Shown piece after piece: positions 10,940 through 63,716 of a stretch of 64,000 nucleotides of DNA. Made by a program: the position numbers and the translations under genes. The notes under the pieces were generated by a model. That model was given only the letters and a program-made list of their open reading frames with translations. It ran no database searches and was not told where the DNA came from. Every line of letters starts with the position of its first letter. The stretch's first letter is position 1. The stretch spans positions 80,921 to 144,920 of the forward strand of contig JACPKU010000006.1 of the NCBI GenBank assembly GCA_016186915.1, read 5' to 3'. Source of the DNA: Candidatus Doudnabacteria bacterium. GTDB taxonomy: Bacteria; Patescibacteriota; Doudnabacteria; UBA920; O2-02-FULL-48-8.

Positions 10940-10959
10940 TAATCAGTTTGGTCCTATCA

Positions 10960-16900: not shown

Positions 16901-19665
16901 GCAGTGACGCGATTAATCTACAGCCAAACTTTACCTCTTCCACCGCGGTGTTTTATTCGCTCAATGACGGGCTGATGGTCGGTTCGAACTCACAAATTGT
17001 AGGCGCCTATGGAGAACGTGTCACGGTGCAGAGCAATGCCAAGGTTTCTCACGTGCCGGGCTTGCAGTTCGCCACCTTTGTCTGTCCGCCGCCAGCGCAA
17101 ACACCTAACATCACCGTGACCAAAGCAGCAGACAAACCCTCAATACTTGCTGGGGAAACTATAACTTTTACTTTAGAAGTGGAGAATAGCGGGACGGTGG
17201 CAGCGAATAATGTTACGCTCACTGATATTTTATCACCTGAATTTGAGTTCGTCGGTTCAACGCCCAGTCCGACCACAACGATTGTGACCGGTTCTGGCAC
17301 AGAGTTGAAATACAGCTTAAGTGAAGTTGGGGTCAATGAAACTAAAACCGTAACGATTGAAGCCAAAGCGGTGAGCAGTATCACTACCAGCATAGTTGTA
17401 GAAAACAAAGCTGTAGCCACAGGTGACAATTTTACACCCGAAGACTCCAACACTGTTGACGTGACTATCAACCCTATCCCCGCACCAGTGATGCCAATAA
17501 TCACGGTGACAAAATCTTCTGACAAATCTACAGTCTTGGCTGGCGATACAGTTATATTTACTTTGGAAATAGCAAACAGCGGCACGGCGGACGCGACCAA
17601 TGTGGTGTTGAGCGATACTCTGACTTTAGAATTTGAATTTATCTCCAGCACCCCAAGTCCTACAAGCAATACGGTTACCGCGACCGGCACAGAGCTGACT
17701 TTCGATCTGGGAACCGTGGCGATGGGCAGCTCTTCCACCATTACAATTGAAGTAAAAACTGACAGATTCGAATATCGTAAATGTCACAATCGATCCTTTG
17801 CCACTGCCTCCTATACCAACCAATCCTGTTATCAATGTTACCAAATCCGCAGACCATCCATCAGTTACGGCTGGCGATACAGTTATATTTACTTTGGAAA
17901 TAGCAAACAGCGGCACGGCGGACGCGACCAATGTGGTGTTGAGCGATACTCTGGGTTTAGAATTTGAATTTATCTCCAGCACCCCAAGTCCTACAAGCAA
18001 TACGGTTACCGCGACCGGCACAGAGCTGACTTTCGATCTGGGAACCGTGGCGATGGGCAGCTCTTCCACCATTACAATTGAAGTAAAAACTGACAGATCG
18101 CAACCACTACTTTGGTGGAAAATAAAGCGGTGGCAGACGGCGACAATTTTGGATCCGAAGAATCGAACACCGTGGAGCTAACAATTAACCCGCTTTCTGG
18201 AGGCGGTGGCACACCCACGGGTCCTACGATTACCAAAAGTGCCTCAAACACATCGGTAGTCGCAGGACAGGAGATTACGTATACCATTGAAGTTGAAAAT
18301 GATTCGTCCGACACTTTGGTGGATGCGGCGGTAAGGGACATCCTGGACCAGAATCTTGAATTTGTTTCTGCTAATCCACCTCCTACTACCAACACGACTG
18401 TTTTGGGTGTAACCACCTTAACTTGGGAAATAGGCGATCTTGGCGTAGGAGAGAAGTTTACGATTGAACTAAAGGTAGAGGTAAAAAGCGGAACTGTTTC
18501 CGGAACTATTATTGAAAATGACGCTGAATTGAGCGCTGATCAGTTCAACCCCATCACTGCAGGTGCCCCTGACGTAGAAGTAACCAGTCCGCCATCCGGC
18601 GGCGGCAGTGGCGGCGGCGGCAGTGGCGGCGGCGCAATTATGCCGCCCCCAAACTATGAGGCAAATATGGAGTTTGTGTTTGCTGACCCCAAGGTTAAAG
18701 GTGAAGATTACGGGGAATCGGTAACCATTACCAACACTGGCAGTATAGCTTTGAGCCCTGGGGATTTGACAGTGACTTTTCCGCTAAGCCTGAACGTGGT
18801 CACTCTCAGTCCGTCTGCCATATCATTTGCAGGCAATGTCGCGACTTGGTCTGTCCCGGTAATTCCAGTGGGCGGCTCCTATACCGTGTCCTTCACCGTT
18901 AAACCCAATGCAACGGGAACCAATATTATTACCGTGGCCAATTATTACATTGGCACGCAACAGATCGCAGTAGCGAGCGCTTCAGAGAACGTGGGAGATG
19001 TGGCGGGGGAAACTGCGCCTGAACTTCCCAGAACAGGCGCGGGTGCGGCTTATTTGCTGCTTGTGAACCTACCACTGTTATTTATGAGAAGGCTGAAGAA
19101 AGCTTTGGCTGCTTTGTTTTTGTTGGCGGCTGGCTTCTTGGCGCTTAATTTTAGTTATTTTAAGGAAGTGGTCAGCTTTTCGCTCAACAAACAACGTCAA
19201 GAGCAGGAACAGCTTTTGGTGGAGGAAGAACTGCCGCCCAATACTTTGACCGTGCCGAGTTTGGGAATTATGGTGCCGATCATCCTTGATTCAGGCAGCT
19301 CTGAATCGGAATTTCAGGAAGCCTTGCGAAACGGGGTGGTGCATTATCCCGGCACGGCGCAGGTCGGGCAGGCAGGCAACAGTTATATATTCGGGCATTC
19401 ATCTGATTATTTCTGGAGCAGAGGGAATTACAAGACCGTGTTTGCGGTTTTGCCCAAGATCAATATTGGTGATGAGGTTATGGCTACAGATGCCGAAGGA
19501 CAAGAGTACTTTTATCAGGTCAAAGAGACCAAAGTCGTCGGCCCTTCAGATCTGTCAGTGCTGGAACAGGATTACACCAAGAAACGATTAACTTTACAAA
19601 CTTCGTATCCCATAGGGACGGCCTTGAAGCGGTTTATAGTAATTGCTGAACTGAAAGAAGAGTAA
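10960..19665 (+). CDS. giant (~2900 aa) surface protein: Arg-rich tripeptide-repeat N-region, TM/signal-like segment, acidic region, four ~85-aa Asn-rich repeats, DUF11-type repeats, LPRTG sorting motif, C-terminal sortase-like domain. Frame interrupted by a compensating frameshift pair at about 17760 and 18095.
   Basis: Track ORFs 10948..17967 (frame 1), 17798..18181 (frame 2) and 18112..19665 (frame 1) are colinear. Frame 1 is stop-free for 1570 nt upstream of the first clear signal-like segment (MAAGVLVFMVVGSISPALA at 12520), which is far beyond chance. DUF11-like units (VTKxxDKxxVLAGDTVIFTLEIANSGTADATNVVLSDTL) repeat. LPRTG followed by a hydrophobic segment and RRLKK. Nothing was checked by a domain search. 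Confidence 0.6.
11078..11340 (+). repeat. 9-bp tandem minisatellite (~29 units, consensus (g/a)ATAGGTCG) lying in-frame inside the giant ORF
   Basis: aataggacc aataggtcg gatagggtt tataggtcg ... read directly; encodes tripeptide repeats (NRS/DRV/YRS...). Confidence 0.9.
19084..19665 (+). CDS. sortase-like domain (possible independent start at ATG 19084) with Ser in place of the catalytic Cys
   Basis: MRRLKKALAALFLLAAGFLALNFSYF signal-anchor; IFGHSSDYF (sortase His motif); LTLQTSYPIGTALKRFIV aligns to the TLxTC...R signature with C->S (codon tcg). Confidence 0.6.
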   Translation: MRRLKKALAALFLLAAGFLALNFSYFKEVVSFSLNKQRQEQEQLLVEEELPPNTLTVPSLGIMVPIILDSGSSESEFQEALRNGVVHYPGTAQVGQAGNSYIFGHSSDYFWSRGNYKTVFAVLPKINIGDEVMATDAEGQEYFYQVKETKVVGPSDLSVLEQDYTKKRLTLQTSYPIGTALKRFIVIAELKEE

Positions 19666-37910: not shown

Positions 37911-37934
37911 CAATTGCTTACTGGCCCGTAAGGA

Positions 37935-37962
37935 AGTGTCCAATTCGCGCGAATTGGACACT
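37935..37962. repeat. 28-bp perfect palindrome containing ATTCGCGCGAAT core
   Basis: agtgtccaATTCGCGCGAATtggacact; same 12-bp core recurs at 59669, 60012, 60783, 61206. Confidence 0.85.
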
Positions 37963-38054
37963 TGGTAGGCAGATATTATAAGTCCTTAATAAGATCTCAA
38001 TAGGGCCGGCTCCGTCTGACGGGGCAGGCAAGGGCGGGATGAGAGAGGAGAAAC

Positions 38055-38252
38055 ATGAGAGTAGTCAAGCCAAGCGAGAAGATATTAACCAAAATGCTTG
38101 GTATAATCAAAAAGCGGCCGGGGATTAGGCCGCGTGAAATTAATCGGCTTTTGGGACGCGGACATTCGGCGAGTTTGCGGAATACTCTGATTCAGCAGGG
38201 GCTGGTGAGAAAAGACAAGCGAGGGAACGGAGAGTGCGATACTATTTTATAG
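38055..38252 (+). CDS. small hypothetical protein, possible winged-helix
   Basis: RBS gagaggag 5 nt before ATG; 65 aa basic. Confidence 0.35.
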   Translation: MRVVKPSEKILTKMLGIIKKRPGIRPREINRLLGRGHSASLRNTLIQQGLVRKDKRGNGECDTIL

Positions 38253-51664: not shown

Positions 51665-51738
51665 TGGGGAGTAGCCAAGCGGTAAGGCAACGGACTCTGA
51701 ATCCGTCATCGTAGGTTCGATCCCTACCTCCCCAGCCA
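51665..51738 (+). tRNA. tRNA-Gln (anticodon CUG)
   Basis: UGGGGAG acceptor / CUCCCCA, D-arm GCCAAGCGGUAAGGC, anticodon stem ACGGA/UCCGU loop CUCUGAA, T-arm GUAGGUUCGAUCCCUAC, encoded CCA; near-identical in architecture to E. coli tRNA-Gln. Confidence 0.85.
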
Positions 51739-51852
51739 AAAAAAAGATTTTCCGTTTTTAATCATAAAAAAATGGCTCATCTCATGGGGAGGTGAGCCAA
51801 TCCAGAATGGGCGGGAACCCGTACAACGCGATTGCAAACGCGTTGACCTCCT

Positions 51853-52116
51853 TCAGTGCGTTCTGGCCAGCTCGCGGACCTTCGCGGCCACACTTTCCGG
51901 CAGGATCACGTCCTCGTCGAGCTGAACCAGTTCGTCCCAGGTCAGGTCAAATTCTTCCTTCAGCGTGAGGCTGATGGTGACCATGTGGTCATAAGCCTCT
52001 TTCCAGCCGCTGGGGTCGAGGTATCTGTAGGTTCCGATTTCCGTCACCACCAATATCAGCGGCGCGGCTCGCTCCGCTGCGACCCTGAACGCATCGAGCA
52101 TCTCTCCATAGGTCAC
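51853..52116 (-). CDS. hypothetical protein (GC-rich island)
   Basis: RBS gaaggagg 4-7 nt before GTG; 87 aa acidic. Confidence 0.4.
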   Translation of the reverse strand: MTYGEMLDAFRVAAERAAPLILVVTEIGTYRYLDPSGWKEAYDHMVTISLTLKEEFDLTWDELVQLDEDVILPESVAAKVRELARTH

Positions 52117-52136
52117 GTCTTTCCTCCTTCTCTCGG

Positions 52137-52616
52137 TCAGCGGCGGGCGTAGGACGGTGCCTCTGGTTTTTCCTGCCGGCGTTGTTCACTCTGGTTCTCC
52201 AGCGGATCGCCATCAGTTTTGCCATACGCCGACCGTACCTCGTCGAATTGGTCTTGCAGTATCTGAGCTTGGCGAGAGTCTTGCGACAGATACCTGGCTC
52301 TCGGAGTTGACTCGGACCCGGCCGTGTAGTTGAAGTGATCCACTACAGGCTCTGGCGCCTCCACAATGGCGACTTCTTCGCACCACGTGTCATTGTCTAG
52401 ACAGAAGACGCTATACTTGTCGAGCACGTTGTCTTCGCCCAGATCCAAGTACACCCGAAGGATGTTGTTTTTCTCCACCATACGGAAGTCTGTGAACTCC
52501 ACGCCCAGCGGTCTGCCAGAGTGTTCGTCAGTGAGCAGCTCCCGCTTGATCCCTGGGGACGCACAGCCACTGACCAAAAGCGCCAGGCCGAGCAGGCAGT
52601 TGTATCTATTTTTCAT
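52137..52616 (-). CDS. lipoprotein (hypothetical)
   Basis: MKNRYNCLLGLALLVSGC lipobox; RBS aaggagg 8 nt before ATG 52616; track ORF extends further upstream without support. Confidence 0.55.
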   Translation of the reverse strand: MKNRYNCLLGLALLVSGCASPGIKRELLTDEHSGRPLGVEFTDFRMVEKNNILRVYLDLGEDNVLDKYSVFCLDNDTWCEEVAIVEAPEPVVDHFNYTAGSESTPRARYLSQDSRQAQILQDQFDEVRSAYGKTDGDPLENQSEQRRQEKPEAPSYARR

Positions 52617-52812
52617 TAGCCGATCCTCCTTGCGAATAAGTAAGTTTAACACGTCTCTTACCCGGACAGCAAAAGGATCAAAGTCGGACGACCGGACAAG
52701 CCGCGGCGGTCTCAAGCTCCGAACCCTCTTAAGGTCCGGAGTTTTTTTGACTATAAAATTTTTCCCTGATAAGCTGGTTTCATTATGCCACTGTCCTGAA
52801 GGAGGAAAGGCC

Positions 52813-53397
52813 ATGAAGTTCACAGCTGAAAGTCCAGCCGAGTACTTCCGAGGGCTGGTAGAAAGTGCGATCGAACAACAGCGGATTCCGGCTAGTCAGT
52901 CGGCCAGGTATTATCTGACCAACTTGCTTTGCGGCTATGTGAGTCCAAGTACGGCCGGGACCTTACTGCCGTTTGAGGATGAGCTGCTAGTGATCAGACT
53001 GTGTCGGGCTTTGTCCGCCGGCGGGAGGGTGCAGCGCACGGAGCTGCGCCTGCTTGGCGACGTATCGTTGTTCGCGGCAGGATACTTTTCGGACAGTTTC
53101 CGCCGCAAACTGGTGGATGTGGATTATTACATAACGCTCGGCGGCTGCGCCTACACCGCACTCAGCCAGGCTGGACGGCGGGCGACGAATGGGTTGTTCG
53201 CTGAGCTGGCAGACAAGTTCGTCTCGTTCGCTGACGTTTTAGCAGACGTCAGCGAACAAAGCGGACTGACCTCCAACCGTGATTTACTGCGTCTCTACGA
53301 ACGGTGGCTGAAAACCAGAAGCTTACGGGATGCAAGGAAGCTTGCACAGCGGGGGATTACTCCAAATCTCACGTTGCGCAGTCTGCGAGTGCAGTAA
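52813..53397 (+). CDS. hypothetical protein (GC-rich island)
   Basis: RBS aggagg before ATG 52813; followed by repeated terminator hairpin. Confidence 0.5.
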   Translation: MKFTAESPAEYFRGLVESAIEQQRIPASQSARYYLTNLLCGYVSPSTAGTLLPFEDELLVIRLCRALSAGGRVQRTELRLLGDVSLFAAGYFSDSFRRKLVDVDYYITLGGCAYTALSQAGRRATNGLFAELADKFVSFADVLADVSEQSGLTSNRDLLRLYERWLKTRSLRDARKLAQRGITPNLTLRSLRVQ

Positions 53398-53412
53398 GCG
53401 GAAGACCTCTCA

Positions 53413-53450
53413 CCCTTGCTTGGCTCACCCCAAGCAAGGGCTTTTTTTTT
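53413..53450 (+). terminator. rho-independent terminator (repeated element copy 1)
   Basis: cccttgcttggctcaccccaagcaaggg + ttttttttt; identical hairpin at 53885..53912. Confidence 0.8.
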
Positions 53451-53555
53451 GCTGAGATTGATATCAACGGCGCTTCAACTGGCGGCAGCTGTTATTGACC
53501 GCTCTTGATAACGGTTGTATTATTTGGATATCCAATCTTCCAGCAGGAGGAAACC

Positions 53556-53855
53556 ATGAGTAGAATTGCCGTGCTCGAACGGGAAGAAGTCGTCGCGAGA
53601 GAGGTGCGCACGCCTGTTCAAGATCCGCCGCGTCCCGCAGCACCTCCACTGTATCGGCCTGATGGGCCGTCCGAGCCTGGGGATCTGCCGCTCAACGATC
53701 CCGCTTGGCAGCGCCTCGATGCCATGCGCGAAGAAGCGGGGCGACGAGGAATCAGCCAGGAGGAGCTGGCCTTGATGGACCACGGGTTCTGCCCCAAGCA
53801 GATCGACAAGCAGATCGGCAACCTGCGCCTCTGGCTCCGCAACCACCCGGCCTGA
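53556..53855 (+). CDS. hypothetical Pro-rich protein
   Basis: RBS aggagg 5 nt before ATG 53556; followed by second copy of the terminator hairpin. Confidence 0.45.
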   Translation: MSRIAVLEREEVVAREVRTPVQDPPRPAAPPLYRPDGPSEPGDLPLNDPAWQRLDAMREEAGRRGISQEELALMDHGFCPKQIDKQIGNLRLWLRNHPA

Positions 53856-53884: not shown

Positions 53885-53920
53885 CCCTTGCTTGGCTCAC
53901 CCCAAGCAAGGGTGTTTTAT
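53885..53920 (+). terminator. terminator (repeated element copy 2)
   Basis: Same 28-nt hairpin followed by gttttatt. Confidence 0.7.
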
Positions 53921-54018
53921 TGATTTTTTTAGCATTCCGTGGCATTATTTAGTTAAGCAATTAATAGTATTATGAAAATCCGCCGAAGCTCGAAGAGCCA
54001 AGTCACAAGCTCAATTTT

Positions 54019-54711
54019 ATGGGAGAAAACAAAAAAAAACCGCATCCAGCCGAAGGTCATAGAGGAAGATTAAGAGAAAGGTTTATACAAAGTGGGTTAG
54101 ATGCTTTTCTTGATTATGAAATTATTGAGCTGCTTTTGACTCTAGGCACTCCCCGAAAAGATTGTAAACAAATGGCAAAAGAGTTAATAAAAAAGTTTGG
54201 AGGTCTTAGAGAAGTGCTTGATGCATCACAACAAGAACTTTCTAAAACCGAAGGCATTGGCCTTATGAATTCTTTCGGATTAAAGCTTTTTCAATCAATG
54301 GCTGAGAGATATGAGCGTGAGAAAATTGTTCAGAAAATTGTTCTCGAGACGCCTCAAAAAGTTGCTAAATATTTACAAGAGAAAATCGGGAGAGAAGAAA
54401 AAGAGCATTTCATTACATTGTGTCTTGATACGAAAAATAATCTTATCAAAATAATCGAAATTTCGATTGGCACATTAAATGAAAGTCTGGTTCATCCAAG
54501 AGAAATCTTTAAAGAAGCTGTGGTAAATCACGCCGCTCAAGTTATAGTTTCCCATAACCATCCTTCAGGCGATATCCAGCCCTCGAGTCAGGATTTATTA
54601 GTCACAAAGCGGTTAGTAGAAGTAGGTAAAATTTTAGGAATTGAACTTTTGGATCATATTATAGTAAGTCGGAGTAACTTTTTGAGTTTTAGAGAGCAGA
54701 ATCTAATTTAA
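54019..54711 (+). CDS. radC: RadC-like JAB/MPN domain protein
   Basis: HhH N-domain; JAMM motif HNHPSG...S.QD. Confidence 0.8.
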   Translation: MGENKKKPHPAEGHRGRLRERFIQSGLDAFLDYEIIELLLTLGTPRKDCKQMAKELIKKFGGLREVLDASQQELSKTEGIGLMNSFGLKLFQSMAERYEREKIVQKIVLETPQKVAKYLQEKIGREEKEHFITLCLDTKNNLIKIIEISIGTLNESLVHPREIFKEAVVNHAAQVIVSHNHPSGDIQPSSQDLLVTKRLVEVGKILGIELLDHIIVSRSNFLSFREQNLI

Positions 54712-54716
54712 TTTTT

Positions 54717-55070
54717 ATGCCTAAATCCGAAATAAAGAAATTGACAAAAAAGATAGTTGCATTCCGCGATGCTCGAAACTGGAAACAATTCCATAATCCT
54801 AAAGATATGGTCTTGTCCCTGGTGCTGGAAGCCGCGGAAGTAGCCGAGCATTTTCAATGGAAAAACGCAAAAGAGATGCAAGAATATATTAAAGAACATA
54901 GGAACGATATTGGAGAAGAGCTGGCTGATGCGTTTTATTGGGTACTCTTAATCTCGAATGATCTAAATATAGATTTAGAGCAGGCGTTTAACAAAAAGAT
55001 GAAGCAGAACAAAAAAAAATATCCTGTAAGCAAAGCAAAAGGTAGACATGACAAGTATACGAAGTTATAA
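54717..55070 (+). CDS. MazG-like nucleoside triphosphate pyrophosphohydrolase
   Basis: EAAEVAEHFQW...ELADAFYWVLLISNDLNIDLEQA MazG-type EExxE/D motifs; 117 aa. Confidence 0.7.
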   Translation: MPKSEIKKLTKKIVAFRDARNWKQFHNPKDMVLSLVLEAAEVAEHFQWKNAKEMQEYIKEHRNDIGEELADAFYWVLLISNDLNIDLEQAFNKKMKQNKKKYPVSKAKGRHDKYTKL

Positions 55071-55072
55071 CC

Positions 55073-56929
55073 ATGAGACTATACGAAGGCACTGTTCAAG
55101 ATTTTAATTATAATGTTTCTCACAATCAGATTGCAGATAAGGTCGCTGAAGCCTACGCCACTTATTATAAAAAAAGACCTGCTGAATCTGAGTACCGTTC
55201 TTGGCAACAATCGTTGAGTCTTTTTAATTATGCATTGATAAATAGTGGTTTGACTTCAAACTGGATTATTATAGAGTACGAATTGCCCTATTCAACCAGA
55301 AGAATTGATGTCTTACTTTTTGGCAAAGGTCATGAAAATAAGGATAATATTGTTCTTATTGAACTGAAACAGTGGTCGAACGAACACGTTCACGATAGTA
55401 CTGTTGAGGGTAATATTGTTGTAGATTATGGAATTTTTAAACGTGAGGTGGCCCATCCCTCCTTACAAGTCCAAGGATACCATTTTGATTTAATAGATTT
55501 CTTTAAAATATTTGAAGAAAAAAAATCGCCTCAATTGAATTCGTGTGTATACTGCCATAACTATTCGAAAAGTAACGGAGAAAAAGTCCTTTTTTATCCT
55601 AAATTTGAGAAGCTTATAGAGAAGTATAAAGTTTTCAGCAAAGAAGATGCCGCGGACTTAGGTGAATATTTAAAATACAGATTAAGCCAAGGAGAGGGAC
55701 TTGAAGTTTTTAACCGATTTATTCACAGTCAAATAAGACCTACTAAGAAGTTGCTTGATCACACAAGCGAAATGATAAATAAGCAACAGATTTTCACACT
55801 GATTGATGACCAAATCGCTGCTTACAATGGAATAATGCACAAGGCCAAACAGTTAGTTAAGCTGAAAGTGAAATCAGTAATCATTGTGAAGGGCGGACCT
55901 GGCACCGGCAAATCTGTAATTGCTTTGGAGGTGATGGGAGAATTATTGAGACGAGGGTACGTAGTATTTCATGCTACAGGCTCGTCAGCATTTACAAACA
56001 CCTTACGTAAGGTAGTTGGTAGCAGAGCGAATAAATTATTCAAATTTTTCTTTAATTTTACGCAGGAAAAAGAAAATTCGATTGATGTAATTGTGTGTGA
56101 TGAAGCGCATAGATTGCGCGCACATAGTAATGATTATGGTGTACCTTTTAAATTTAGATCTAAAAATCCTCAAATAGAGGATATAATAAAGCCCGCCAAA
56201 CTTTCGGTTTTTTTCCTTGATGAATTCCAAGTCGTAAGGCCAAAGGAAATTGGAAGTGTGGATTTAATCAGAGGAGCAGCAAAAATTTTAAGTGTTAATG
56301 ATTCAAACATTCTTGAGTATGAGTTAAAAACCCAATTTCGTTGCTCCGGTTCTGATGCTTATTTACAGTGGTTAGATAAGATTTTTGGTATACGCGATAC
56401 AGAGATAACTCAATTCGATAAGAAAATGGAATTTAAAATTTTTGATTCTCCAACTTTGCTTAAAACTGCCATTGATGCAAAAAACCTTGAAAAACCTAAC
56501 TCAGCTAGGATAACAGCTGGTTTCTGCTGGCCATGGAGTGAACCAAGGCCGGACGGTAGTTTGGTCAACGATGTCAAAATCGGTAATTTTGAAATGCCAT
56601 GGGAAAATAAAAAGGAGTTTTGGAAATGGGCGACAGATACAAGTGGTCAAGAACAAGTTGGTACAGTTTATACTGCTCAGGGATTTGAATTCGAATACAT
56701 CGGGGTAATTATTGGAAACGATTTAGTTTATGATCGTGTGACAAAAAAATGGAAAGCAATTCCTGAAAACTCTTACGATAAAGCGGTTGTAAGAAATAAT
56801 CAGGAATTAACGCAACATTTAAAACATGTTTACCGCGTTTTGTTGTCCAGAGCTCATAAAGGAGTATATGTTTATTTTATGGATAAAAACACCGAAGAGT
56901 ATTTTAAGATAAGTTTAGAAAATCGATGA
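55073..56929 (+). CDS. PD-(D/E)xK nuclease fused to DUF2075 (Schlafen group-3-like) SF1 helicase/ATPase
   Basis: N-terminal RRIDVLLFGKG...IVLIELKQW (D...ELK nuclease motif); Walker A GGPGTGKS, Walker B VIVCDEAHRL, motif VI-like TVYTAQGFEFEYIGVIIGND characteristic of DUF2075. Confidence 0.65.
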   Translation: MRLYEGTVQDFNYNVSHNQIADKVAEAYATYYKKRPAESEYRSWQQSLSLFNYALINSGLTSNWIIIEYELPYSTRRIDVLLFGKGHENKDNIVLIELKQWSNEHVHDSTVEGNIVVDYGIFKREVAHPSLQVQGYHFDLIDFFKIFEEKKSPQLNSCVYCHNYSKSNGEKVLFYPKFEKLIEKYKVFSKEDAADLGEYLKYRLSQGEGLEVFNRFIHSQIRPTKKLLDHTSEMINKQQIFTLIDDQIAAYNGIMHKAKQLVKLKVKSVIIVKGGPGTGKSVIALEVMGELLRRGYVVFHATGSSAFTNTLRKVVGSRANKLFKFFFNFTQEKENSIDVIVCDEAHRLRAHSNDYGVPFKFRSKNPQIEDIIKPAKLSVFFLDEFQVVRPKEIGSVDLIRGAAKILSVNDSNILEYELKTQFRCSGSDAYLQWLDKIFGIRDTEITQFDKKMEFKIFDSPTLLKTAIDAKNLEKPNSARITAGFCWPWSEPRPDGSLVNDVKIGNFEMPWENKKEFWKWATDTSGQEQVGTVYTAQGFEFEYIGVIIGNDLVYDRVTKKWKAIPENSYDKAVVRNNQELTQHLKHVYRVLLSRAHKGVYVYFMDKNTEEYFKISLENR

Positions 56930-56985
56930 AAAAGTTTATAAACTTTATGGTTTGATTGAAAAAGAAATTAATATAATCAAGGCTA

Positions 56986-57489
56986 ATGACTAAATTGAAC
57001 ATAAGAATAAAAATCCGAAAATACGGTTTGAAAGTTATTGGCTTTCTGTTTCTTATATATATTAACAGCTTTTTAGATAAGATATTTGAGCCCTTAAATG
57101 AGTATTTAATCAATACATCAAAAACATTTCCAGTATTAAAGATATTAGATTTTTTTGTATCAATTCTAGCACTGGAAATTCCAATTTATTCCTTGTTAAT
57201 AGCCCTGTCAGTTATTTGGATCGTATTTAAAATTTACTTGTTCGTAAGAGTTCGTCGGAATAAATTACAAATTCTCACGGCAATCTATGGTAAAAATAGT
57301 AGAATTGTAGAAATTACTAATCAATTAAATAATCTTGTAGAAAATGATAAATTGAAAGTTGTATTATCGAATGCCTTGGCGGGTGATCCACTCTACGGGA
57401 AACCAAAGATGGGGAAGGTAAAATATCAATATAATGGAAAAATTTCAGAGAAGGAATATATTGAAGGCGAAACTATAGAACTTCCATGA
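56986..57489 (+). CDS. hypothetical membrane protein
   Basis: 3 hydrophobic segments; AT-rich island. Confidence 0.4.
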   Translation: MTKLNIRIKIRKYGLKVIGFLFLIYINSFLDKIFEPLNEYLINTSKTFPVLKILDFFVSILALEIPIYSLLIALSVIWIVFKIYLFVRVRRNKLQILTAIYGKNSRIVEITNQLNNLVENDKLKVVLSNALAGDPLYGKPKMGKVKYQYNGKISEKEYIEGETIELP

Positions 57490-57537
57490 GGGATTCATTG
57501 ATTTGAATTTTTTTATTTATTAAGCTAATCTTTGTTT

Positions 57538-57756
57538 ATGGCAAGAGTAACTTTCGACACAATTTTCGCAAGTCATACGGAAGATAATTCATATGAACCT
57601 CGTCAAAGAATAAGGGTGGGTTCTGTTGAATTTGGGCCAGGAGTTAGATTTACCAGAGGAGTTGCCTTTGGTGGTGTAGAATTTGACCAGGTTATTGGTC
57701 ACGAACTTGAAGTCGAGACCCAAGGAGACTTATTAGTCATTAAAGGCGTTTATTGA
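57538..57756 (+). CDS. small hypothetical protein
   Basis: ATG 57538 (MARVTFD...) inside track ORF. Confidence 0.3.
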   Translation: MARVTFDTIFASHTEDNSYEPRQRIRVGSVEFGPGVRFTRGVAFGGVEFDQVIGHELEVETQGDLLVIKGVY

Positions 57757-57757
57757 A

Positions 57758-58054
57758 ATGGCGAAGGAAGATTTAAAAATAAAATTTAATGACCCAGAAG
57801 ATTTCATTAAAAGATTTGATAGGCTTTTTTATTTCGTAGTTGGAGCAATGTTAATCGGTTTTCTTTCTCTGTTGTTTATGGTGGCCGGGTTGGTTGTTGA
57901 CTCTTGGCGTTTTAATTCCACCGTCTATAAAGAGTCAAAATTATTAAAACTTCAAGAAGATATAATAAATCAAAATTTTGAACAGCAGAAACTTAATTCT
58001 AATACCCTTGAATCTATAAAACAGCAGTTACTAGAGATGAAAACCAAACAGTAA
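57758..58054 (+). CDS. small membrane protein
   Basis: One TM helix then coiled-coil-like tail; followed by terminator ccgcagcttggtcgctgcgg + T-run (58093..58125). Confidence 0.4.
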   Translation: MAKEDLKIKFNDPEDFIKRFDRLFYFVVGAMLIGFLSLLFMVAGLVVDSWRFNSTVYKESKLLKLQEDIINQNFEQQKLNSNTLESIKQQLLEMKTKQ

Positions 58055-58148
58055 TAGCACTGTAGTAATTTAATTTCCCCAACTATTAAAAACCGCAGCT
58101 TGGTCGCTGCGGCTTTTAATTTTTTATTTTCATTTCTAATAAGGTTAA

Positions 58149-58373
58149 TTAACCTTTCGGAGGATACGGGTCATGCTGGTAGGTATTGCGTTCACGGATT
58201 TTACCGTCTCGGCCGTGAATGAATACCTCACCGCCGCCTTGATTGATTGCAGTTTGCCGCGCGACTCTGAAGGCGTCTTGTTGATCATCCATAACGATTG
58301 TGTCTCGATCAGCGTTTGCGCGACGAACCGCCCACTGGTTGTGGCCGCGGTATACGACGTGTTGGTTAGCCAT
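58149..58373 (-). CDS. DUF2188 domain protein
   Basis: ...GGEVFIHGRDGKIRERNTYQHDPYPPKG matches DUF2188 C-terminal signature (HGRDG..R....G.DP.PPKG). Confidence 0.65.
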   Translation of the reverse strand: MANQHVVYRGHNQWAVRRANADRDTIVMDDQQDAFRVARQTAINQGGGEVFIHGRDGKIRERNTYQHDPYPPKG

Positions 58374-58503
58374 AACTATTCCTTTCTTCCGCTAATTATT
58401 CGACCTTTATTTTGGTTTCGGATTTTTAGGCCTCCACCATACATTAATTTTATGACTCGAAAGTAAAATAGTCAATAACACTGGTATTGACTATTAAAAC
58501 TGA

Positions 58504-59115
58504 ATGCATATAATAACTTCAAAGGCGGCTTTTGCCGCTATTCAATTTTTTATGAATAAACATTTAGAACCGATTTTTAGAAAAGTATTACCAGCTTTAG
58601 ATGAAGCTGATATTGATTACTGGGTTTACGGTGGTGTGGCCATTGCCGGTATAGAAGGGGATTTTTATCGGTATAATGAAGATGTCGATATTTTTATTTT
58701 TGATAATGATTATCAGCGAACCTTGGAAGTAATTGAAAATCTGAATTATAATTGGAGTAAAGTCAAACACGCAAAACTCCTTAATGGAATACGTCCAAAA
58801 GAGGAATACTTTGTTAAGGATCAAAAGGAAGATATATTTTCGGTAATCCCAGTCTATAAAATTAATGATAATAAAATTAAGTTTGTTTATTCCAAAGATT
58901 TAGTTCCAGTCAACCCACTAACTCGAGAAAAGAGAATCATTGGAAGTTATACATTTTTTACCCCTGGCAGTGAGTTTATCAAAGAACAGTTTATCCATAA
59001 AATAAAAGGGAAAATTTTCAAACAGGCGGAATTATCGGAAAATGAGGAAAAGGATGCCGAGGTTTTGTTCGGTCCCGATTATTTAAAAACAATAACTGCT
59101 TTAGTTCATTCCTGA
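58504..59115 (+). CDS. nucleotidyltransferase-fold protein (hypothetical)
   Basis: YGGVAIAGIEGDFYRYNEDVDIFIF resembles minimal NTase GG...DhD motif. Confidence 0.4.
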   Translation: MHIITSKAAFAAIQFFMNKHLEPIFRKVLPALDEADIDYWVYGGVAIAGIEGDFYRYNEDVDIFIFDNDYQRTLEVIENLNYNWSKVKHAKLLNGIRPKEEYFVKDQKEDIFSVIPVYKINDNKIKFVYSKDLVPVNPLTREKRIIGSYTFFTPGSEFIKEQFIHKIKGKIFKQAELSENEEKDAEVLFGPDYLKTITALVHS

Positions 59116-59344
59116 CCCTTCTCTAATACACGAAGTATACGAAGGTCACCTTTGCAATTTGGATTTTAAGCTGCTGTTGACCGTCTCGACTTCGCCCGAG
59201 GCCTTCGGCGAGACATAGTTTTTGTTTTAGGGAATTAAAATGTTAGAATTAAAATAGGTGTATATGGGTGAATATATTTTTTGTAAATTATGAGAGAGAC
59301 GTCATCAGGCCATAAGATTTGGGGGAAGAGGGAAAGTCAAAACC

Positions 59345-59650
59345 TTGAACAGCAAACCGTATAAATTCAAAGCCAAAGTGTGGTTGTATCCAGGAGAGGC
59401 TGGGTGGCACTTTGTGAATGTGCCTAAGAATCTATCAAAACAGATTGATAAAAGTTTTGCACATTTGAAAAGGGGATTTGGCTCGTTGCCGGTAGTGGCG
59501 CAGATTGGCAAAACCTTCTGGAAAACCTCGATCTTTCCAGACACCAAATCCGGCACTTATTTATTGGCTTTGAAAGTCGCGGTTCGCAAAGCCGAACATA
59601 TTAAGCTTCATGACCGTCTTGCCATCGTCCTCCAAATCCGAGAACTCTAG
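59345..59650 (+). CDS. DUF1905 domain protein
   Basis: FKAKVWLYPGEAGWHFVNVP...GSLPVVAQIGKTFWKTSIFP...GTYLLALKVAVRK matches DUF1905 pattern. Confidence 0.65.
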   Translation: MNSKPYKFKAKVWLYPGEAGWHFVNVPKNLSKQIDKSFAHLKRGFGSLPVVAQIGKTFWKTSIFPDTKSGTYLLALKVAVRKAEHIKLHDRLAIVLQIREL

Positions 59651-59726
59651 TATCTTATTTAAGGACTCATTCGCGCGAATGAGCGAATGATGGTATATTG
59701 GCTATACACAATTTTTTGCAGCTTCT

Positions 59727-60002
59727 GTGAATTATTCTTCTATGCCCACTTTAGAAAGACAACTTAAGGCGTTAGCGAATAAAAGAAGATTAGCGATAAT
59801 CAAATTTTTGGATAATCGCCGCGAAGCGTCGGTGGGTACGATTGCGGGCTGGATTAGATTGTCTTTCAAGTCTACATCCAAGCATTTATCAATTTTATCC
59901 GCGGTTGACATCGTGGATAAGGAGCAGCGCAGCAAAACCGTGTTTTATCATCTGGTTTCGCCGAAATCCAATTTAGTCAAACAAATTTTATCTCTGCTTT
60001 AA
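59727..60002 (+). CDS. ArsR/SmtB-family transcriptional regulator
   Basis: LKALANKRRLAIIKFL...VGTIAG...SKHLSIL...VFY winged-HTH pattern. Confidence 0.55.
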   Translation: MNYSSMPTLERQLKALANKRRLAIIKFLDNRREASVGTIAGWIRLSFKSTSKHLSILSAVDIVDKEQRSKTVFYHLVSPKSNLVKQILSLL

Positions 60003-60034
60003 CTAGGCATCATTCGCGCGAATAGGAGAATAGT

Positions 60035-60796
60035 ATGTGGTATTCTGGGAACGATTTTACAAATGAGGAGCTAGAAGTTCTAAAGGAGCTTGAGCGGGAG
60101 TTATTTAAATATAATCCCGGTTTTCGAGCCATGTGGCACGATGATTTTGAAGAGTACTTTAAGGGGACGTTGAATGAGGAGTACTGGGAGCGAAGAGAAA
60201 AACAACGCAATAAGGAATTAGAAGAAATAGTAAGAAAGCGGATGGTCGAAGATTTTGAATACGTGAAGTTTCGACATGAATTAGCGGAAATAGAGGAAAT
60301 GCTGTCGCGAGATGATCTTTTTTCCATCAAAGCAAGGGCTGGATTTGAGGATGAGTGGGAGAAAGCTCAAGAAAAAAAGCGGGAAGATAAGCTTTATGTG
60401 ACCGCAAAAGATTGGAGTTTTGAACTTTCGCATTTAGCTTATGAACTATATGAAACATATAAATTACTGCCCTTGTTTCGGATTGGAAAGAACGCCAGTT
60501 ATGTGGCGGCAAAAATAGCCTATGCTTCAGCGGATTTCAGAGAACGGATTGAAACATTGGAGGACCTGGCACGGAACACTTCATGGATAGGATATACGTT
60601 GGCGCTGACTTTTTTAAATAGAAGCTTAGAGTCTTTGGAAAAACTTGAAAGAGAAAATGAGCTGGCAGTTAGAATTGATTTGGATCGTTTTCAAACAACA
60701 GGCTCAAAGATGAAATTAGAATTGATGGATCGTTTGGAAAAATTTCACCAATCGGCGCTTAAGGCCAGATTTACTGGTTCTAATTCGCGCGAATGA
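60035..60796 (+). CDS. hypothetical protein (acidic/helical)
   Basis: Preceded by ATTCGCGCGAAT palindrome + aggag RBS. Confidence 0.45.
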   Translation: MWYSGNDFTNEELEVLKELERELFKYNPGFRAMWHDDFEEYFKGTLNEEYWERREKQRNKELEEIVRKRMVEDFEYVKFRHELAEIEEMLSRDDLFSIKARAGFEDEWEKAQEKKREDKLYVTAKDWSFELSHLAYELYETYKLLPLFRIGKNASYVAAKIAYASADFRERIETLEDLARNTSWIGYTLALTFLNRSLESLEKLERENELAVRIDLDRFQTTGSKMKLELMDRLEKFHQSALKARFTGSNSRE

Positions 60797-60807
60797 GGGA
60801 ATAGTAT

Positions 60808-61206
60808 ATGAATAAATTTGATTGCGAGAAATTTGAAGAAAAATTGAGAGAAATGGGCATCGAATATGACCCTAAGGCCTTTAAAGCAGGCCGGCTGACT
60901 AAATTATTGTTGAAACTTGACCCAATCCGAGGAACGAAAAGATTCAATAAGAGGTCGGGTGTTAGAAACGATGTCTTTGATAAAGCCCATGAACTTTTTT
61001 CTAAAATTGAGCGCATTGATATTTTCCCTCTTGGGGGTGGCTTACGAGGGTTCGTTTTAGTACTTGATCAAAACACCGCACTCTTTTTTTATCAAGACGG
61101 TGATTATTTTAAATATGACGGCTTTGAAATGGGTAAGTATGCGAAAGGCAAGGTCACGATCTTCGACGACTTACCAGACAATCTTCCAAGTCCTTATGAT
61201 CTCTAA
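60808..61206 (+). CDS. hypothetical protein
   Basis: Preceded by ATTCGCGCGAAT palindrome + gaggg RBS; followed by fourth palindrome copy. Confidence 0.45.
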   Translation: MNKFDCEKFEEKLREMGIEYDPKAFKAGRLTKLLLKLDPIRGTKRFNKRSGVRNDVFDKAHELFSKIERIDIFPLGGGLRGFVLVLDQNTALFFYQDGDYFKYDGFEMGKYAKGKVTIFDDLPDNLPSPYDL

Positions 61207-61329
61207 TTCGCGTGAATGAACGAATGAGTGGATGACCAAATTGCTTTGACGAGGACGTCAAAGGTTCCGCAGGACGGCGGTTTTTGTTTGTGGTAATATT
61301 AAATTAGAATTGAATAATTTTTTTTGCTT

Positions 61330-62094
61330 ATGTCTGTGATTAAAAAAAGTGTAATTATAGTTCTGGGCTTGGTAGTTGCAGTATTTGTTAGTCTTAGCGT
61401 TTACTTTTCCCAAGCGCCGTCGGAAACTAAGGCTTCGGAGCGGTTTATCACTGCCAACCCTGTGGACCTTGCGCAGATTGAGGCTTTTTCCAAATACCGC
61501 AGTTGTGAGGGCCACGATTTTCGCGCACCCCACCTCACGACCGCAGAAATAGAAGCGACCCCCAGCTCCATGAAGCATTATGTCAAGGCAAAGCCGGAGT
61601 TCCGTGGCACGGTTGATCAGGTCAAAGCCATGGCGCCTTTTGACGGCAAGATTTATAAAATTTACGACGAAGGCCCTTCTGATCAGCAAGTTTGGCTGAC
61701 ACCCCATGCTGTCAGTCCGCAACAGTGGCAATTTGTCTTTTTTCACATTGCTTTGCGTGACGGCTTAAAGCAAGGCTCTGCCGTCACAGCCGGGCAGGTA
61801 ATAGGCACGGCCAATCTGAAACGTGGGCCGGATGGTGGGACTGATAACTTTGATCTCGCGGTAAAGTTTACCAGACCGCTTCATAGACCAGCCATTGACG
61901 CGCCTTTTAACCACGCGACTCAGGCGGTACTGGATGAATATCGAGCATATGGGATTGAGCCTGAAGATTTTATCATCTCAGAAGAATACCGCAGTGCGCA
62001 CGACTGTCCGCGTTCTGATTGGGCGGACGAGGGGCCGTTTATCTATTTTGCGCCCGGAGGGCCGGATGATTATGTTTGGCTGACGCAACAATAA
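61330..62094 (+). CDS. membrane-anchored hypothetical protein
   Basis: N-terminal TM SVIIVLGLVVAVFVSLSVYF; higher GC than preceding island. Confidence 0.45.
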   Translation: MSVIKKSVIIVLGLVVAVFVSLSVYFSQAPSETKASERFITANPVDLAQIEAFSKYRSCEGHDFRAPHLTTAEIEATPSSMKHYVKAKPEFRGTVDQVKAMAPFDGKIYKIYDEGPSDQQVWLTPHAVSPQQWQFVFFHIALRDGLKQGSAVTAGQVIGTANLKRGPDGGTDNFDLAVKFTRPLHRPAIDAPFNHATQAVLDEYRAYGIEPEDFIISEEYRSAHDCPRSDWADEGPFIYFAPGGPDDYVWLTQQ

Positions 62095-62317
62095 TCTCTA
62101 TTGGCACTTGCCGCTATTAGAACTCTTCAAGGTCGAACCTTGATGCTTGAAATATAATTTTAGCTATCGCTATTTTTATGTTAATTCTGGTTGACATTTT
62201 AAGCGGGAGGGTTATAATTATTTCAAGGCGGCAGAAGTGCCGCTAATTTAATTGCAAGAATGCAGATTGAGTTTTATGACCCAGGAGCCGGTTTGAAATT
62301 CATTTAATTAACTTTGG

Positions 62318-62350
62318 ATAAAAAAAGCCCGCGGATTTGTGTTCCGTGGG
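62318..62350 (-). terminator. rho-independent terminator for purF-like gene
   Basis: On minus strand: ccgcccacggaacacaaatccgcgggc + ttttttt. Confidence 0.6.
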
Positions 62351-62369
62351 CGGAGCGGACGAGGTGGAA

Positions 62370-63716
62370 TTATTCGCTAAAACAACAGGTGCAGAACGTA
62401 CTAAAATCGTTCCCCAAGAGCTCCCTAAGCCTATCGTGCTTGAGAAAGCCCAGGCTGTCAGCGCCGAGATATCTTCCGAGCGCCTCGAGCCCTTGCTTGG
62501 TGGCGACCATTTCTGACCTGGCGAGCGGACCAGAACCGTAGAGGCAGGGAGCATTGTTCGGGGGAGAACTGATGCGAAGGTGTATTTCCCTCGCGCCTGC
62601 TTCCCTAACCATTTTAGTGACGTAGAGGCTGGTGTGCCCTCTGAGGATCCTGGTGTGCACCAGGACTACTTTCTTTCCGTTCACAATTGAACTGGCCGGG
62701 TTGAACTTTTCCCGAACAGTCAGGCTGAGAGGGTTATCCACTGGAGGAACCCCAACGCGGTTCGTCCAGTAGTGATTGCGGGTGATGCCCTGTCGAAAGG
62801 GTAGTCCGGAAACCGTTGAAAAACCAAGGGCGGGACAAAAGCCTGACTCCGGGATTGGGACGACAATGTCAGCATCTTCCGCCGGAGAGTCGTGGGCCAG
62901 ATAGCCTCCCAGTTTCGTGCGGAACTCGTCCACACTGTGGCCAAACATTATGCTGTCAGGTCTGGCGAGCGCGGTGAGTTCAGCCAAACATCGGCTTTGA
63001 CAGACTGGTGGAAATGGCTGGTGGGATGTAATCCCGTGTTCGTTGACCAGAACGACTTCGCCTGGCTCGACTTCTCGAGAAAACTCGGCTTCGATCAAAT
63101 CGAACGCGCAGGTTTCAGAGGCGGCGACAATCGCTCCGTTCGAGAGCGTACCGATGACCAGAGGCTTGTAGCCGCTGGGGTCTCGACAGAGGATCAGACC
63201 TTCTTGAGTCAGACAGGCCAAGGCATAGCCGCCTTGAAGCTTTGACAAAGCATCAACCAACGCCCCAAGGTTCGTTTTGGCTTTGGATCGTCCGTAGAGT
63301 GGGGGAATCACGTGCGTGTCGCTGGTTTCTTCTGGGAAGGATAAGCCCTCGTCCTTCAACGCCTGTTTGATGGCCTCGGCGTTGGACAAGTGTCCATCGC
63401 TAGCCACGGCGAACTGACCGTGTTGGCTGTCCGAAGCAATTGGCTGCGCGTTGAGAATGCTGATGTCTCCCCAAGTCGGCCGTCGGACTTGTCCGATCGC
63501 AACAGGAAGCTTGCTGTTGACAAGTTCCTCGCCGTTGCCGAAAACTTGAGTTATCCGGCCCATACCCTTGCTGACTCTGATTTTGTCCCGTAGGTCGCAG
63601 GTCGCGATCCCGGCACTGTCGTGCCCTCGATGCTGTTGCGCGTAGAGCATAAGATAGGTCAAATATGACGCTTCCTCGTTTCCCCAAACAGCCGCAATTG
63701 CAGACATGGTAAACAC
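62370..63716 (-). CDS. amidophosphoribosyltransferase-like protein (PurF family) lacking the N-terminal Cys nucleophile
   Basis: MSAIAAVWG..LMLYAQQHRGHDSAGI aligns to PurF MCGIVGI..LQHRGQDAAGI; PRTase motif VLVHTRILRGHTSLYVTKMVREAGAREIHL and IVVPIPESG; C-terminal Cys cluster. Probable ATG 63707 (M-S-A-I). Confidence 0.7.
   Translation of the reverse strand: MFTMSAIAAVWGNEEASYLTYLMLYAQQHRGHDSAGIATCDLRDKIRVSKGMGRITQVFGNGEELVNSKLPVAIGQVRRPTWGDISILNAQPIASDSQHGQFAVASDGHLSNAEAIKQALKDEGLSFPEETSDTHVIPPLYGRSKAKTNLGALVDALSKLQGGYALACLTQEGLILCRDPSGYKPLVIGTLSNGAIVAASETCAFDLIEAEFSREVEPGEVVLVNEHGITSHQPFPPVCQSRCLAELTALARPDSIMFGHSVDEFRTKLGGYLAHDSPAEDADIVVPIPESGFCPALGFSTVSGLPFRQGITRNHYWTNRVGVPPVDNPLSLTVREKFNPASSIVNGKKVVLVHTRILRGHTSLYVTKMVREAGAREIHLRISSPPNNAPCLYGSGPLARSEMVATKQGLEALGRYLGADSLGFLKHDRLRELLGNDFSTFCTCCFSE

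Follow-up and report, generated by a model that had tools for sequence, protein, structure and literature searches.

A palindrome repeated around a small ArsR-type regulator gene of a Doudnabacteria genome: probable operators of a regulator-site pair conserved across Patescibacteria

In a 64,000-nucleotide stretch of contig JACPKU010000006.1 of Candidatus Doudnabacteria bacterium (hereafter the window), the 12-bp palindrome ATTCGCGCGAAT recurs around a cluster of three co-oriented genes, the first of which encodes an 86-amino-acid (aa) protein of the ArsR/SmtB family. This raises the question of what the repeats are: binding sites of the regulator that they surround, parts of promoters, boundaries of a mobile cassette or signals acting in RNA. 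The original prediction, made from the sequence of the window, had left the choice between an autoregulated ArsR-type regulon and a mobile repeat. From the comparative analysis described here we conclude that the repeats are probably operators of the 86-aa regulator and that regulator and site form a pair conserved across Patescibacteria, a reading to which we give a probability of roughly 0.77 on the basis of sequence comparison.

The repetition itself is real. The window holds four perfect copies of ATTCGCGCGAAT (37943-37954, 59669-59680, 60012-60023 and 60783-60794) and one copy with a single mismatch, ATTCGCGTGAAT (61206-61217); these five matches compare with an expectation of 0.31, and none of 100 dinucleotide-preserving shuffles attained five. 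The four clustered copies (sites 1 to 4, Table 1) belong to one directional family with a unit of about 27-29 nt, which reaches beyond the bare 12-mer. Site 1 includes a perfect 18-bp palindrome, CTCATTCGCGCGAATGAG, and the extended 3' flank that had been described as common to copies 1 and 4, GAATGARCGAATGA, was confirmed. The placement of the copies had to be revised in part. A distance of 12-20 nt to the start codon is roughly right for sites 2 and 3, whose cores end 11 nt before ATG 60035 and 13 nt before ATG 60808, respectively, but not for site 1, whose core ends 46 nt before GTG 59727 and 61 nt before ATG 59742. The proposed overlap of the 12-mer with the ribosome-binding site did not hold: the Shine-Dalgarno-like sequences are located in the conserved 3' flank, outside the 12-mer, which supplies AGGAG 6 nt before ATG 60035 at site 2 and GAGG 9 nt before ATG 60808 at site 3. 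The fourth copy is present where it had been reported, but rather than following the last stop codon it starts on it, the final A of the TAA that ends the 132-aa gene doubling as the first core base of site 4.

Table 1 Coordinates of the features discussed. Positions without a prefix refer to the window, L numbers to the loci used for comparison.
Feature	Position	Strand	Sequence	Remark
Site 1 (O1)	59662..59690	+	AGGACTC-ATTCGCGCGAAT-GAGCGAATGA	Predicted operator at the regulator's own promoter
Extended -10-like box	59691..59699	+	TGgTATATT	13 nt past site 1 core; predicted regulator promoter
ArsR/SmtB winged-helix regulator (P0001), 86 aa	59742..60002	+		Longer open reading frame from GTG 59727 is a mechanical call
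Site 2 (O2)	60005..60033	+	AGGCATC-ATTCGCGCGAAT-AGGAGAATAG	Start 9 nt past the regulator stop
253-aa protein, no known function	60035..60796	+		Recurrent regulator neighbour
Site 3 (O3)	60776..60804	+	GGTTCTA-ATTCGCGCGAAT-GAGGGAATAG	Overlaps final codons and stop of the 253-aa gene
132-aa protein, no known function	60808..61206	+		Recurrent in the neighbourhood or predicted regulon of the regulator
Site 4 (O4)	61199..61227	+	ATCTCTA-ATTCGCGTGAAT-GAACGAATGA	One core mismatch; right edge of low-GC island
Fifth copy	37934..37963	none	ATTCGCGCGAAT core, flanks TGGACACT	Core inside a perfect 30-bp palindrome
DUF1905 gene	59345..59650	+		Ends 18 nt before site 1; Pfam PF08922, E = 5e-23
Array	L061			126 aa, regulator, 161 aa
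Array	L070:1-420			Four elements in 360 nt of apparently non-coding DNA, then regulator, GIY-YIG gene and next gene; sites after regulator and GIY-YIG gene
Array with 253-aa and 132-aa relatives	L205/L206			Site with TATAAT, 194-aa gene, 245-aa gene (59% to 253-aa protein), 135-aa gene (71% to 132-aa protein), stop-overlapping site, regulator (52% identical), site, 81-aa gene
132-aa homologue	L207			Site 13 nt before it; 37%-identical regulator relative 1.5 kb off
132-aa homologue	L208/L209			Site about 28 nt before called start; no regulator homologue detected
132-aa homologue	L187/L203			Directly upstream of site and regulator gene
132-aa homologue	L210			No site
Cys-rich ~580-aa gene	L019:2102-3844
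Cys-rich ~580-aa gene	L028:2366-4102
Cys-rich ~580-aa gene	L083:1049-2776
Cys-rich ~580-aa gene	L083:5187-6923
Cys-rich ~580-aa gene	L114:1872-3632
Cys-rich ~580-aa gene	L114:5447-7228
Cys-rich ~580-aa gene	L127:5295-7097			Directly after regulator
Cys-rich ~580-aa gene	L184:3056-4819			Directly after regulator

Does the regulator travel with the site? Among the loci selected by the motif (n = 119), 34 homologues of the regulator are encoded within 8 kb, nearly all of them between two copies. As an independent test, 80 metagenome loci, 73 of them unique, were picked by the protein alone. The exact core (with at most one mismatch) was initially found in only about two thirds of these protein-selected loci; the remaining ones carry the same element with another centre (GTAC, GCAC/GTGC, GTGA/TCAC or GGCC). 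The core was generalised to ATTC-N4-GAAT and searched for within 140 nt upstream of the gene and 95 nt after its stop, counting unique regulator sequences. With this definition, an upstream site is present for 96 of 104 regulators, a downstream site for 91 of 102 and both for 83 of 100. The protein-selected loci on their own give nearly the same picture (65/71, 62/70 and 55/68, respectively). By our own calculation, the chance of an ATTC-N4-GAAT match is about 0.002 per search window, and 456 kb of protein-selected loci contain 213 matches as compared to 11 after shuffling; additional exact cores around the regulator genes amount to about 0.06 per kb.

The two sites of a locus are related to each other and to the gene that they enclose. 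They share the central tetranucleotide in 71 of 96 cases, and non-palindromic centres are found in either orientation relative to the gene. A variable centre between fixed half-sites is expected of a spacer that is read by a symmetric dimer, and the near-invariant recognition helix of the regulator parallels the invariant half-sites. Moreover, 45 of the 91 downstream sites start exactly on the third base of a TAA stop codon, a register that is not a general rule for other genes upstream of the element. The two-sided bracketing, the ArsR/SmtB fold of the protein (see below) and the site abutting or overlapping the -10 box together give strong comparative support to the autoregulated ArsR-type regulon that the original prediction had offered as one of its two options.

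The element is widely distributed. In a scan of 185,579 species, each represented by one genome, the 20-nt pattern ATTCGCGCGAATRRGNGAAT matched more than 119 loci, with about 17 matches expected by chance in the whole collection according to our own estimate. Patescibacteria (Candidate Phyla Radiation, CPR) were named in 71 of the 80 titles among the matches listed, and the lineages include Paceibacteria, Saccharibacteria and Doudna-, Uhr-, Kaiser-, Lipton-, Nomura-, Giovannoni-, Harrison-, Taylor- and Kerfeldbacteria. An alignment of 134 oriented instances is conserved from -7 to +22 with the consensus TTCTCTA-ATTCGCGCGAAT-A(G/A)G(C/A)GAATAG, including positions that the search pattern had left unfixed (-7 to -1 and +21/+22). 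The element is composed of four ATTC/GAAT units at a spacing of 8 bp, the 12-bp core being ATTC-GCGC-GAAT, and fully palindromic 28-bp versions exist too. It is oriented with respect to genes: the ARGMGAATAG flank points to gene starts (72:41) and the TTCTCTA flank to gene ends (46:11). Simple calls based on open reading frames (ORFs) placed 52 of 174 cores inside ORFs, which we judged to be largely an artefact of gene finding and did not use. The element was also seen in three metagenome-assembled genomes titled 'uncultured Gammaproteobacteria' (L074, L083 and L084), together with the regulator in L074 and with a CPR-type 580-aa protein in L083; the taxonomic labels of these genomes may be wrong.

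The protein encoded between sites 1 and 2 is a bona fide member of the ArsR/SmtB fold. Its public annotation ('helix-turn-helix transcriptional regulator [Candidatus Doudnabacteria bacterium]', on a 420-kb contig) uses the ATG start at 59742, and the homologues fit the same start. The organism is present in groundwater samples (SRR121133xx-121134xx). The sequence matches Pfam HTH_5 with 24.0 bits (cut-off 22) and the ArsR/SmtB subfamily model NCBIfam NF033788 with 58.3 bits (cut-off 55); the NCBIfam model 'autorepressor SdpR' is also among the best matches, under its cut-off. HlyU (E = 6e-8), NolR and CzrA were matched by sequence in the PDB. An AlphaFold2 (AF2) model with a predicted local distance difference test (pLDDT) score of 92 shows the complete fold, with helices at residues 2-11, 14-25, 31-38 and 42-54, strands at 58-63 and 66-71 and a final helix at 77-85, and the top Foldseek matches are NolR, HlyU, CadC and CzrA at template modelling (TM) scores of 0.8-0.85. 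The 115 homologues collected are 43-82% identical and 70-108 aa long; most of them carry PF01022 or PF12840, and the recognition helix LSFK[SA]TS[KR]HL is near invariant among them.

In terms of sensing, the regulator is an ArsR-fold protein outside the known metal-sensor types. It contains no cysteine, nor do 86 of the 106 unique homologues, and a search for metal or redox sensor sites (alpha3N or alpha5 clusters of Cys, His or Asp) revealed no invariant Cys, the sole invariant His being part of the recognition helix. Metal-site residues are likewise absent. A hint regarding specificity comes from the regulators with GTAC-centred sites (e.g. L129, L131 and L134-L137), in which N replaces K/R in the recognition helix (SFKSTSnHL) and the wing reads T-S-T-T in place of R-S-L-Q. 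These substitutions could represent co-variation of protein and DNA or merely shared ancestry.

How might the regulator act on its sites? The extended -10-like box behind site 1 was recognised by inspection and from the pattern at other loci, where a good -10 hexamer, often preceded by TGn, is usually found between the core and the start of the regulator gene. The distance from core to -10 is commonly 2, 12-16, 21-26 or 30 nt. In 17 cases the flank of the element itself makes up a -10 box (TGgTAGAAT), and many loci have just 6-8 nt between the -10 box and the ATG (e.g. L063, L086, L034, L060, L116, L041, L117 and L091). Judged by this spacing, the sequences suggest that leaderless mRNAs may be common for the regulator gene in CPR bacteria. 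Most ArsR-family proteins are repressors, and a variable, promoter-overlapping placement of operators is typical of repressors. We propose that a dimer of the regulator binds the core; a second dimer on the outer ATTC/GAAT units would be speculation. Site 1 sits directly upstream of the extended -10 box, where a -35 element would be, so that the bound protein would block RNA polymerase and repress its own gene, as its position and the behaviour of the ArsR family would lead one to expect. The regulator is probably autoregulated and repressing. Sites 2, 3 and 4, each located where one of the three genes ends, may serve as auxiliary operators or roadblocks through which the regulator would also control the 253-aa and 132-aa genes. 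The simplest reading would be a single transcript from the promoter at site 1 with internal operators, while separate promoters with very short leaders at sites 2 and 3 are conceivable.

The same promoter data bear on a different explanation, i.e. that another conserved factor binds the element or that the element is a promoter module with its GAAT flank as the -10 box, the ArsR gene being merely its most conserved target. The orientation of the element towards gene starts would fit this explanation, as would the flanks that give TGgTAGAAT with ATG 6-8 nt further on and the very mixed targets (see below), which one would expect of a general promoter element. However, the distance from core to -10 varies from 2 to about 48 nt (mostly 2-30), so the core is not a fixed promoter element, and the commonest flank, AGGCGAAT, has no A at position 2 of the -10 hexamer. 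The bracketing of one DNA-binding protein gene from both sides is most simply understood as autoregulation, and neither a promoter module nor another factor would account as readily for the match between the near-invariant recognition helix and the invariant half-sites. In view of these two features we find autoregulation more economical, and consider the involvement of another factor or a promoter module unlikely.

Instead of binding sites, the copies could mark the boundaries of a mobile cassette, either as integron-like recombination sites or as selfish repeats in a variable island, similar to repetitive extragenic palindromic (REP) sequences or miniature inverted-repeat transposable elements (MITEs). 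The cluster is situated at one end of a low-GC island (53.9-61.4 kb), a copy is found at every gene junction of the cluster and the element supplies stop codons. In addition, the gene next to the regulator differs among lineages, and the pair of 253-aa and 132-aa genes is located downstream of the regulator in the window, but upstream of it in L205. Against this, the proteins scanned near the cluster include no integrase, transposase or RAYT, and the 30-bp element has neither a target-site duplication nor an attC-type structure. It is sparse, the 64 kb holding just five copies of which four are clustered, and its core is identical across classes of the superphylum, unlike fast-evolving REP/MITE families. 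The element also precedes conserved housekeeping genes, and a scan of 2.9 million viral contigs with the 20-nt pattern returned zero matches. In the closest available relative (L125, regulator 71% identical) the context is completely different, the regulator gene being located between rseP-like and proS. A short, sparse, gene-start-oriented element that occurs throughout the superphylum and has no recombinase or transposase associated with it in the window does not support the REP/MITE-like repeat that was the other option of the original prediction, and we regard a cassette boundary as very improbable. A cassette bracketed by copies 1 and 4 is likewise not needed, as alternating arrays of sites and genes often surround the regulator in other loci (L061, L070 and L205).

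Formal membership of the known repeat classes was considered as well. REP sequences, the bacterial interspersed mosaic elements (BIMEs) that contain them and attC sites resemble the element in being imperfect palindromes that occur in series at the gene junctions of variable regions; they differ from it in copy number, length, pattern of conservation and orientation to promoters, and the present element has no associated recombinase. As a REP/BIME or MITE, the element has few copies, is not species-specific and shows no duplicated flank, and no transposase was detected among the scanned neighbours. An attC site measures 57-141 bp, has an R''-L''/L'-R' structure and stands at the 3' end of a promoterless cassette, next to a tyrosine-recombinase integrase; the element is only 30 bp long, many copies have their own -10 box, and no integrase domain was seen in the proteins that were scanned between 54 and 64 kb.

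Since sites 2 and 3 lie in a 5' untranslated or intercistronic region with a Shine-Dalgarno sequence, the element might also act in RNA, as an intercistronic hairpin for translation, processing or termination. Indeed, site 1 (-11.8 kcal/mol) and the fifth copy (-19.2 kcal/mol) can fold. Sites 2, 3 and 4, however, fold no better than shuffled sequences (z = +0.40, +0.34 and -0.83, respectively), so recognition would be expected at the level of DNA; the common asymmetric form TTCTCTA...AGGCGAAT retains the sequence but not the pairing, non-palindromic centres are tolerated in both orientations, there is no U-tract and no Rfam family matched. We therefore rate an RNA signal as the least probable of the explanations considered. 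Hairpins are formed by the fifth copy and weakly by site 1, and an RNA model does not serve as a common explanation. Intrinsic terminators were looked for separately: no T-run follows any copy, a terminator scan called none at the sites and the region after site 4 folds no better than shuffles (z = -0.79). An Rfam scan of 57000-62500 gave three weak, unrelated matches, none of them at the sites.

The fifth copy stands apart from the cluster. It had been described as embedded in a palindrome, which is correct, although the palindrome measures 30 bp and not 28 bp. Its flanks are unlike those of the four clustered copies, it is located 23 nt 3' of the stop of a PCC-domain gene, and a -10-like TATTAT (37975-37980) follows 20 nt further on; a 65-aa ORF (38055-38252) begins 91 nt downstream of the copy. 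By our own calculation, about 0.004 perfect cores are expected by chance in 64 kb, and the core at 37943 is therefore unlikely to be a chance occurrence. As palindromic, lineage-specific flanks around bona fide regulator sites also occur elsewhere (L146), the fifth copy may be another operator; considering its stability as RNA (z = -6), it may instead be a hairpin.

Which genes might be controlled in other lineages? Apart from the regulator, the most recurrent gene directly downstream of the element encodes a Cys-rich family of about 580 aa with conserved FLFDCRNCEYCFG-type motifs, which has no Pfam or NCBIfam match. In eight cases, on six motif-selected loci, the site lies 13-23 nt before the ATG of such a gene, and with the protein-selected loci the family grows to 11 members. 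Further predicted targets are connected to DNA repair and replication (ExoX-like exonuclease, RarA/MgsA, small GIY-YIG proteins, DinB, UvrC, MPG glycosylase and PIF1), nucleotide hydrolysis (Ham1, NUDIX, HD, YfbR-like and CYTH), toxin-antitoxin systems (MazE and Fic) and translation, secretion or ribosome biogenesis (MiaA, Sua5, ArgRS, AlaX, SecA and RbfA), and many are proteins of no known function. There is no more than a hint of a DNA-repair and nucleotide-sanitation flavour among them. It is a tentative possibility that operator, regulator and operator constitute a self-contained module that was inherited or has spread through the CPR, that the site is a portable regulated promoter or translation start, since its flank can give an extended -10 box or a Shine-Dalgarno sequence, and that the regulator is a global one which wires lineage-specific gene sets. 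DNA-repair, nucleotide-sanitising and conflict genes as well as the gene of the Cys-rich protein of about 580 aa would then join the regulon as sites are gained.

Several observations weigh against the interpretation of the repeats as operators of the 86-aa regulator. The pairing of protein and site, being read from sequences, rests on co-occurrence. A strict two-hexamer sigma-70 scan called no promoter at site 1 and none at the other sites. Sorting the regulators according to the central four bases of their sites pointed to no residue that clearly determines specificity, and the hint from the GTAC group is confounded by clade. With 11-13 nt between sites 2 and 3 and the next ATG, a separate promoter would not fit there, and simple promoter occlusion does not explain an operator between co-transcribed genes. 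The fifth copy, with its unrelated flanks, may be something else. Finally, the predicted targets are functionally mixed and reveal no coherent pathway or physiological role.

With respect to the neighbouring genes of the window, neither the 253-aa nor the 132-aa protein matched any family in Pfam, PHROG, NCBIfam or PADLOC. The 253-aa protein has 26 relatives in 1.84 billion representatives and was so far met only beside Patescibacteria-type genes. For the 132-aa protein 42 homologues were found, none with a Pfam domain, and all of those with a named source come from Patescibacteria; an AF2 model of the family (pLDDT 72, moderate) gave no fold match in the PDB by Foldseek. In three of four other gene contexts the 132-aa homologue has a site nearby, and in three the regulator (in L207 a 37%-identical relative) is found within 1.5 kb. 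Homologues of the DUF1905 gene upstream of site 1 adjoin the regulator or lie within about 3.1 kb of it in L041, L063/L148 and L164. In L208 (and also in L209) we observed a further repeat akin to the element, with ATTCTGCAGAATGTGAGAATG occurring at 2144 and 4310 and ATTCTTGAGAAT at 1601; the copies at 1601 and 4310 each precede a canonical ATTCGCGCGAAT site by 47 nt. The L208 locus also codes for a more distant HTH_5/MarR-like protein of 100 aa, and repeat and protein may represent a paralogous regulator-site pair.

The low-GC island that ends at site 4 (window positions 53900-61400) has 29-43% GC as compared to 50-59% on both sides. Besides the regulator cluster, it encodes RadC, a MazG-like pyrophosphatase, a nucleotidyltransferase, DUF2188 and DUF1905 proteins and a Schlafen/DUF2075-type helicase with weak PADLOC matches to PDC-S41, Nhi and AbiO, and resembles an accessory or defence-type island in its gene content. 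Neither an integrase within it nor att-like direct repeats bounding it were found. Just left of the island, a 37-nt terminator-like hairpin (CCCTTGCTTGGCTCACCCCAAGCAAGGG+TTTT) is present in two copies (53413-53449 and 53885-53921) that are 92% identical and 472 nt apart, unrelated to the att-like repeats that were sought. The adjacent region at 51800-53800, directly after tRNA-Gln (51665-51738), has an unusually high GC content (mostly 57-59%) and contains the overlapping ORFs 52137-52823 (-) and 52366-53397 (+), which have no Pfam match. Elsewhere in the window, a single ORF at 10948-17967 (+) encodes 2,339 aa.

The kind of mechanism proposed here, an autoregulated winged-helix repressor, is ordinary. 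In fold and size (five helices and a beta-hairpin wing) the regulator resembles the non-metal ArsR/SmtB proteins HlyU, NolR, PagR, SdpR and BigR, and many members of the family bind an inverted repeat at their own promoter, as the regulator of the window, going by its sites, appears to do. BigR and HlyU have a Cys redox switch, which is absent here together with the alpha3N and alpha5 metal sites; the regulator is closest to the non-metal-sensing HlyU, NolR, PagR and SdpR, and it has none of the known sensor sites. The ATTC-N4-GAAT operator with its additional GAAT units at a spacing of 8 bp presumably differs from both the published NolR operator and the 12-2-12 repeats bound by SmtB and CzrA. 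A further difference from the non-metal systems is the second site, which overlaps the regulator's own stop codon. With the metal sensors SmtB, CzrA, CadC and ArsR the regulator shares the family, by sequence and fold, and the expected action, namely a dimer that occludes the promoter and autoregulation, but it has no metal-binding residues, and its neighbours are not genes for metal efflux or detoxification.

HrcA/CIRCE and LexA with its SOS box are likewise systems in which one autoregulated repressor and a near-invariant inverted repeat are found in distant lineages, at the repressor's own gene and at dispersed targets, and several of the targets predicted here are DNA-repair genes as in a LexA-type response (DinB, UvrC, ExoX-like, RarA, MPG and PIF1). 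In contrast to these systems, the present regulator belongs to another protein family, has no domain for self-cleavage or chaperone titration, has incoherent targets and is restricted to Patescibacteria. A literature search, which was limited and is no proof of novelty, found no paper with ATTCGCGCGAAT or with such a regulon in Patescibacteria. What we consider new is this subfamily with its operator, the CPR-wide conservation of the two, the operator-gene-operator architecture with overlap of the stop codon and the predicted regulon.

CPR bacteria are mostly uncultured and have genomes of about 1 Mb that encode few regulators, and how they control transcription is, to our knowledge, almost unexplored. 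The locus described here offers a concrete, directly testable regulator-operator pair, consisting of an 86-aa protein, a 30-bp site and a predicted regulon, which is conserved nearly base for base in Doudnabacteria, Paceibacteria, Saccharibacteria and other classes. The pair also provides a route into the promoter architecture of CPR bacteria, with its extended -10 boxes and possible leaderless starts, and to conserved proteins of no known function.

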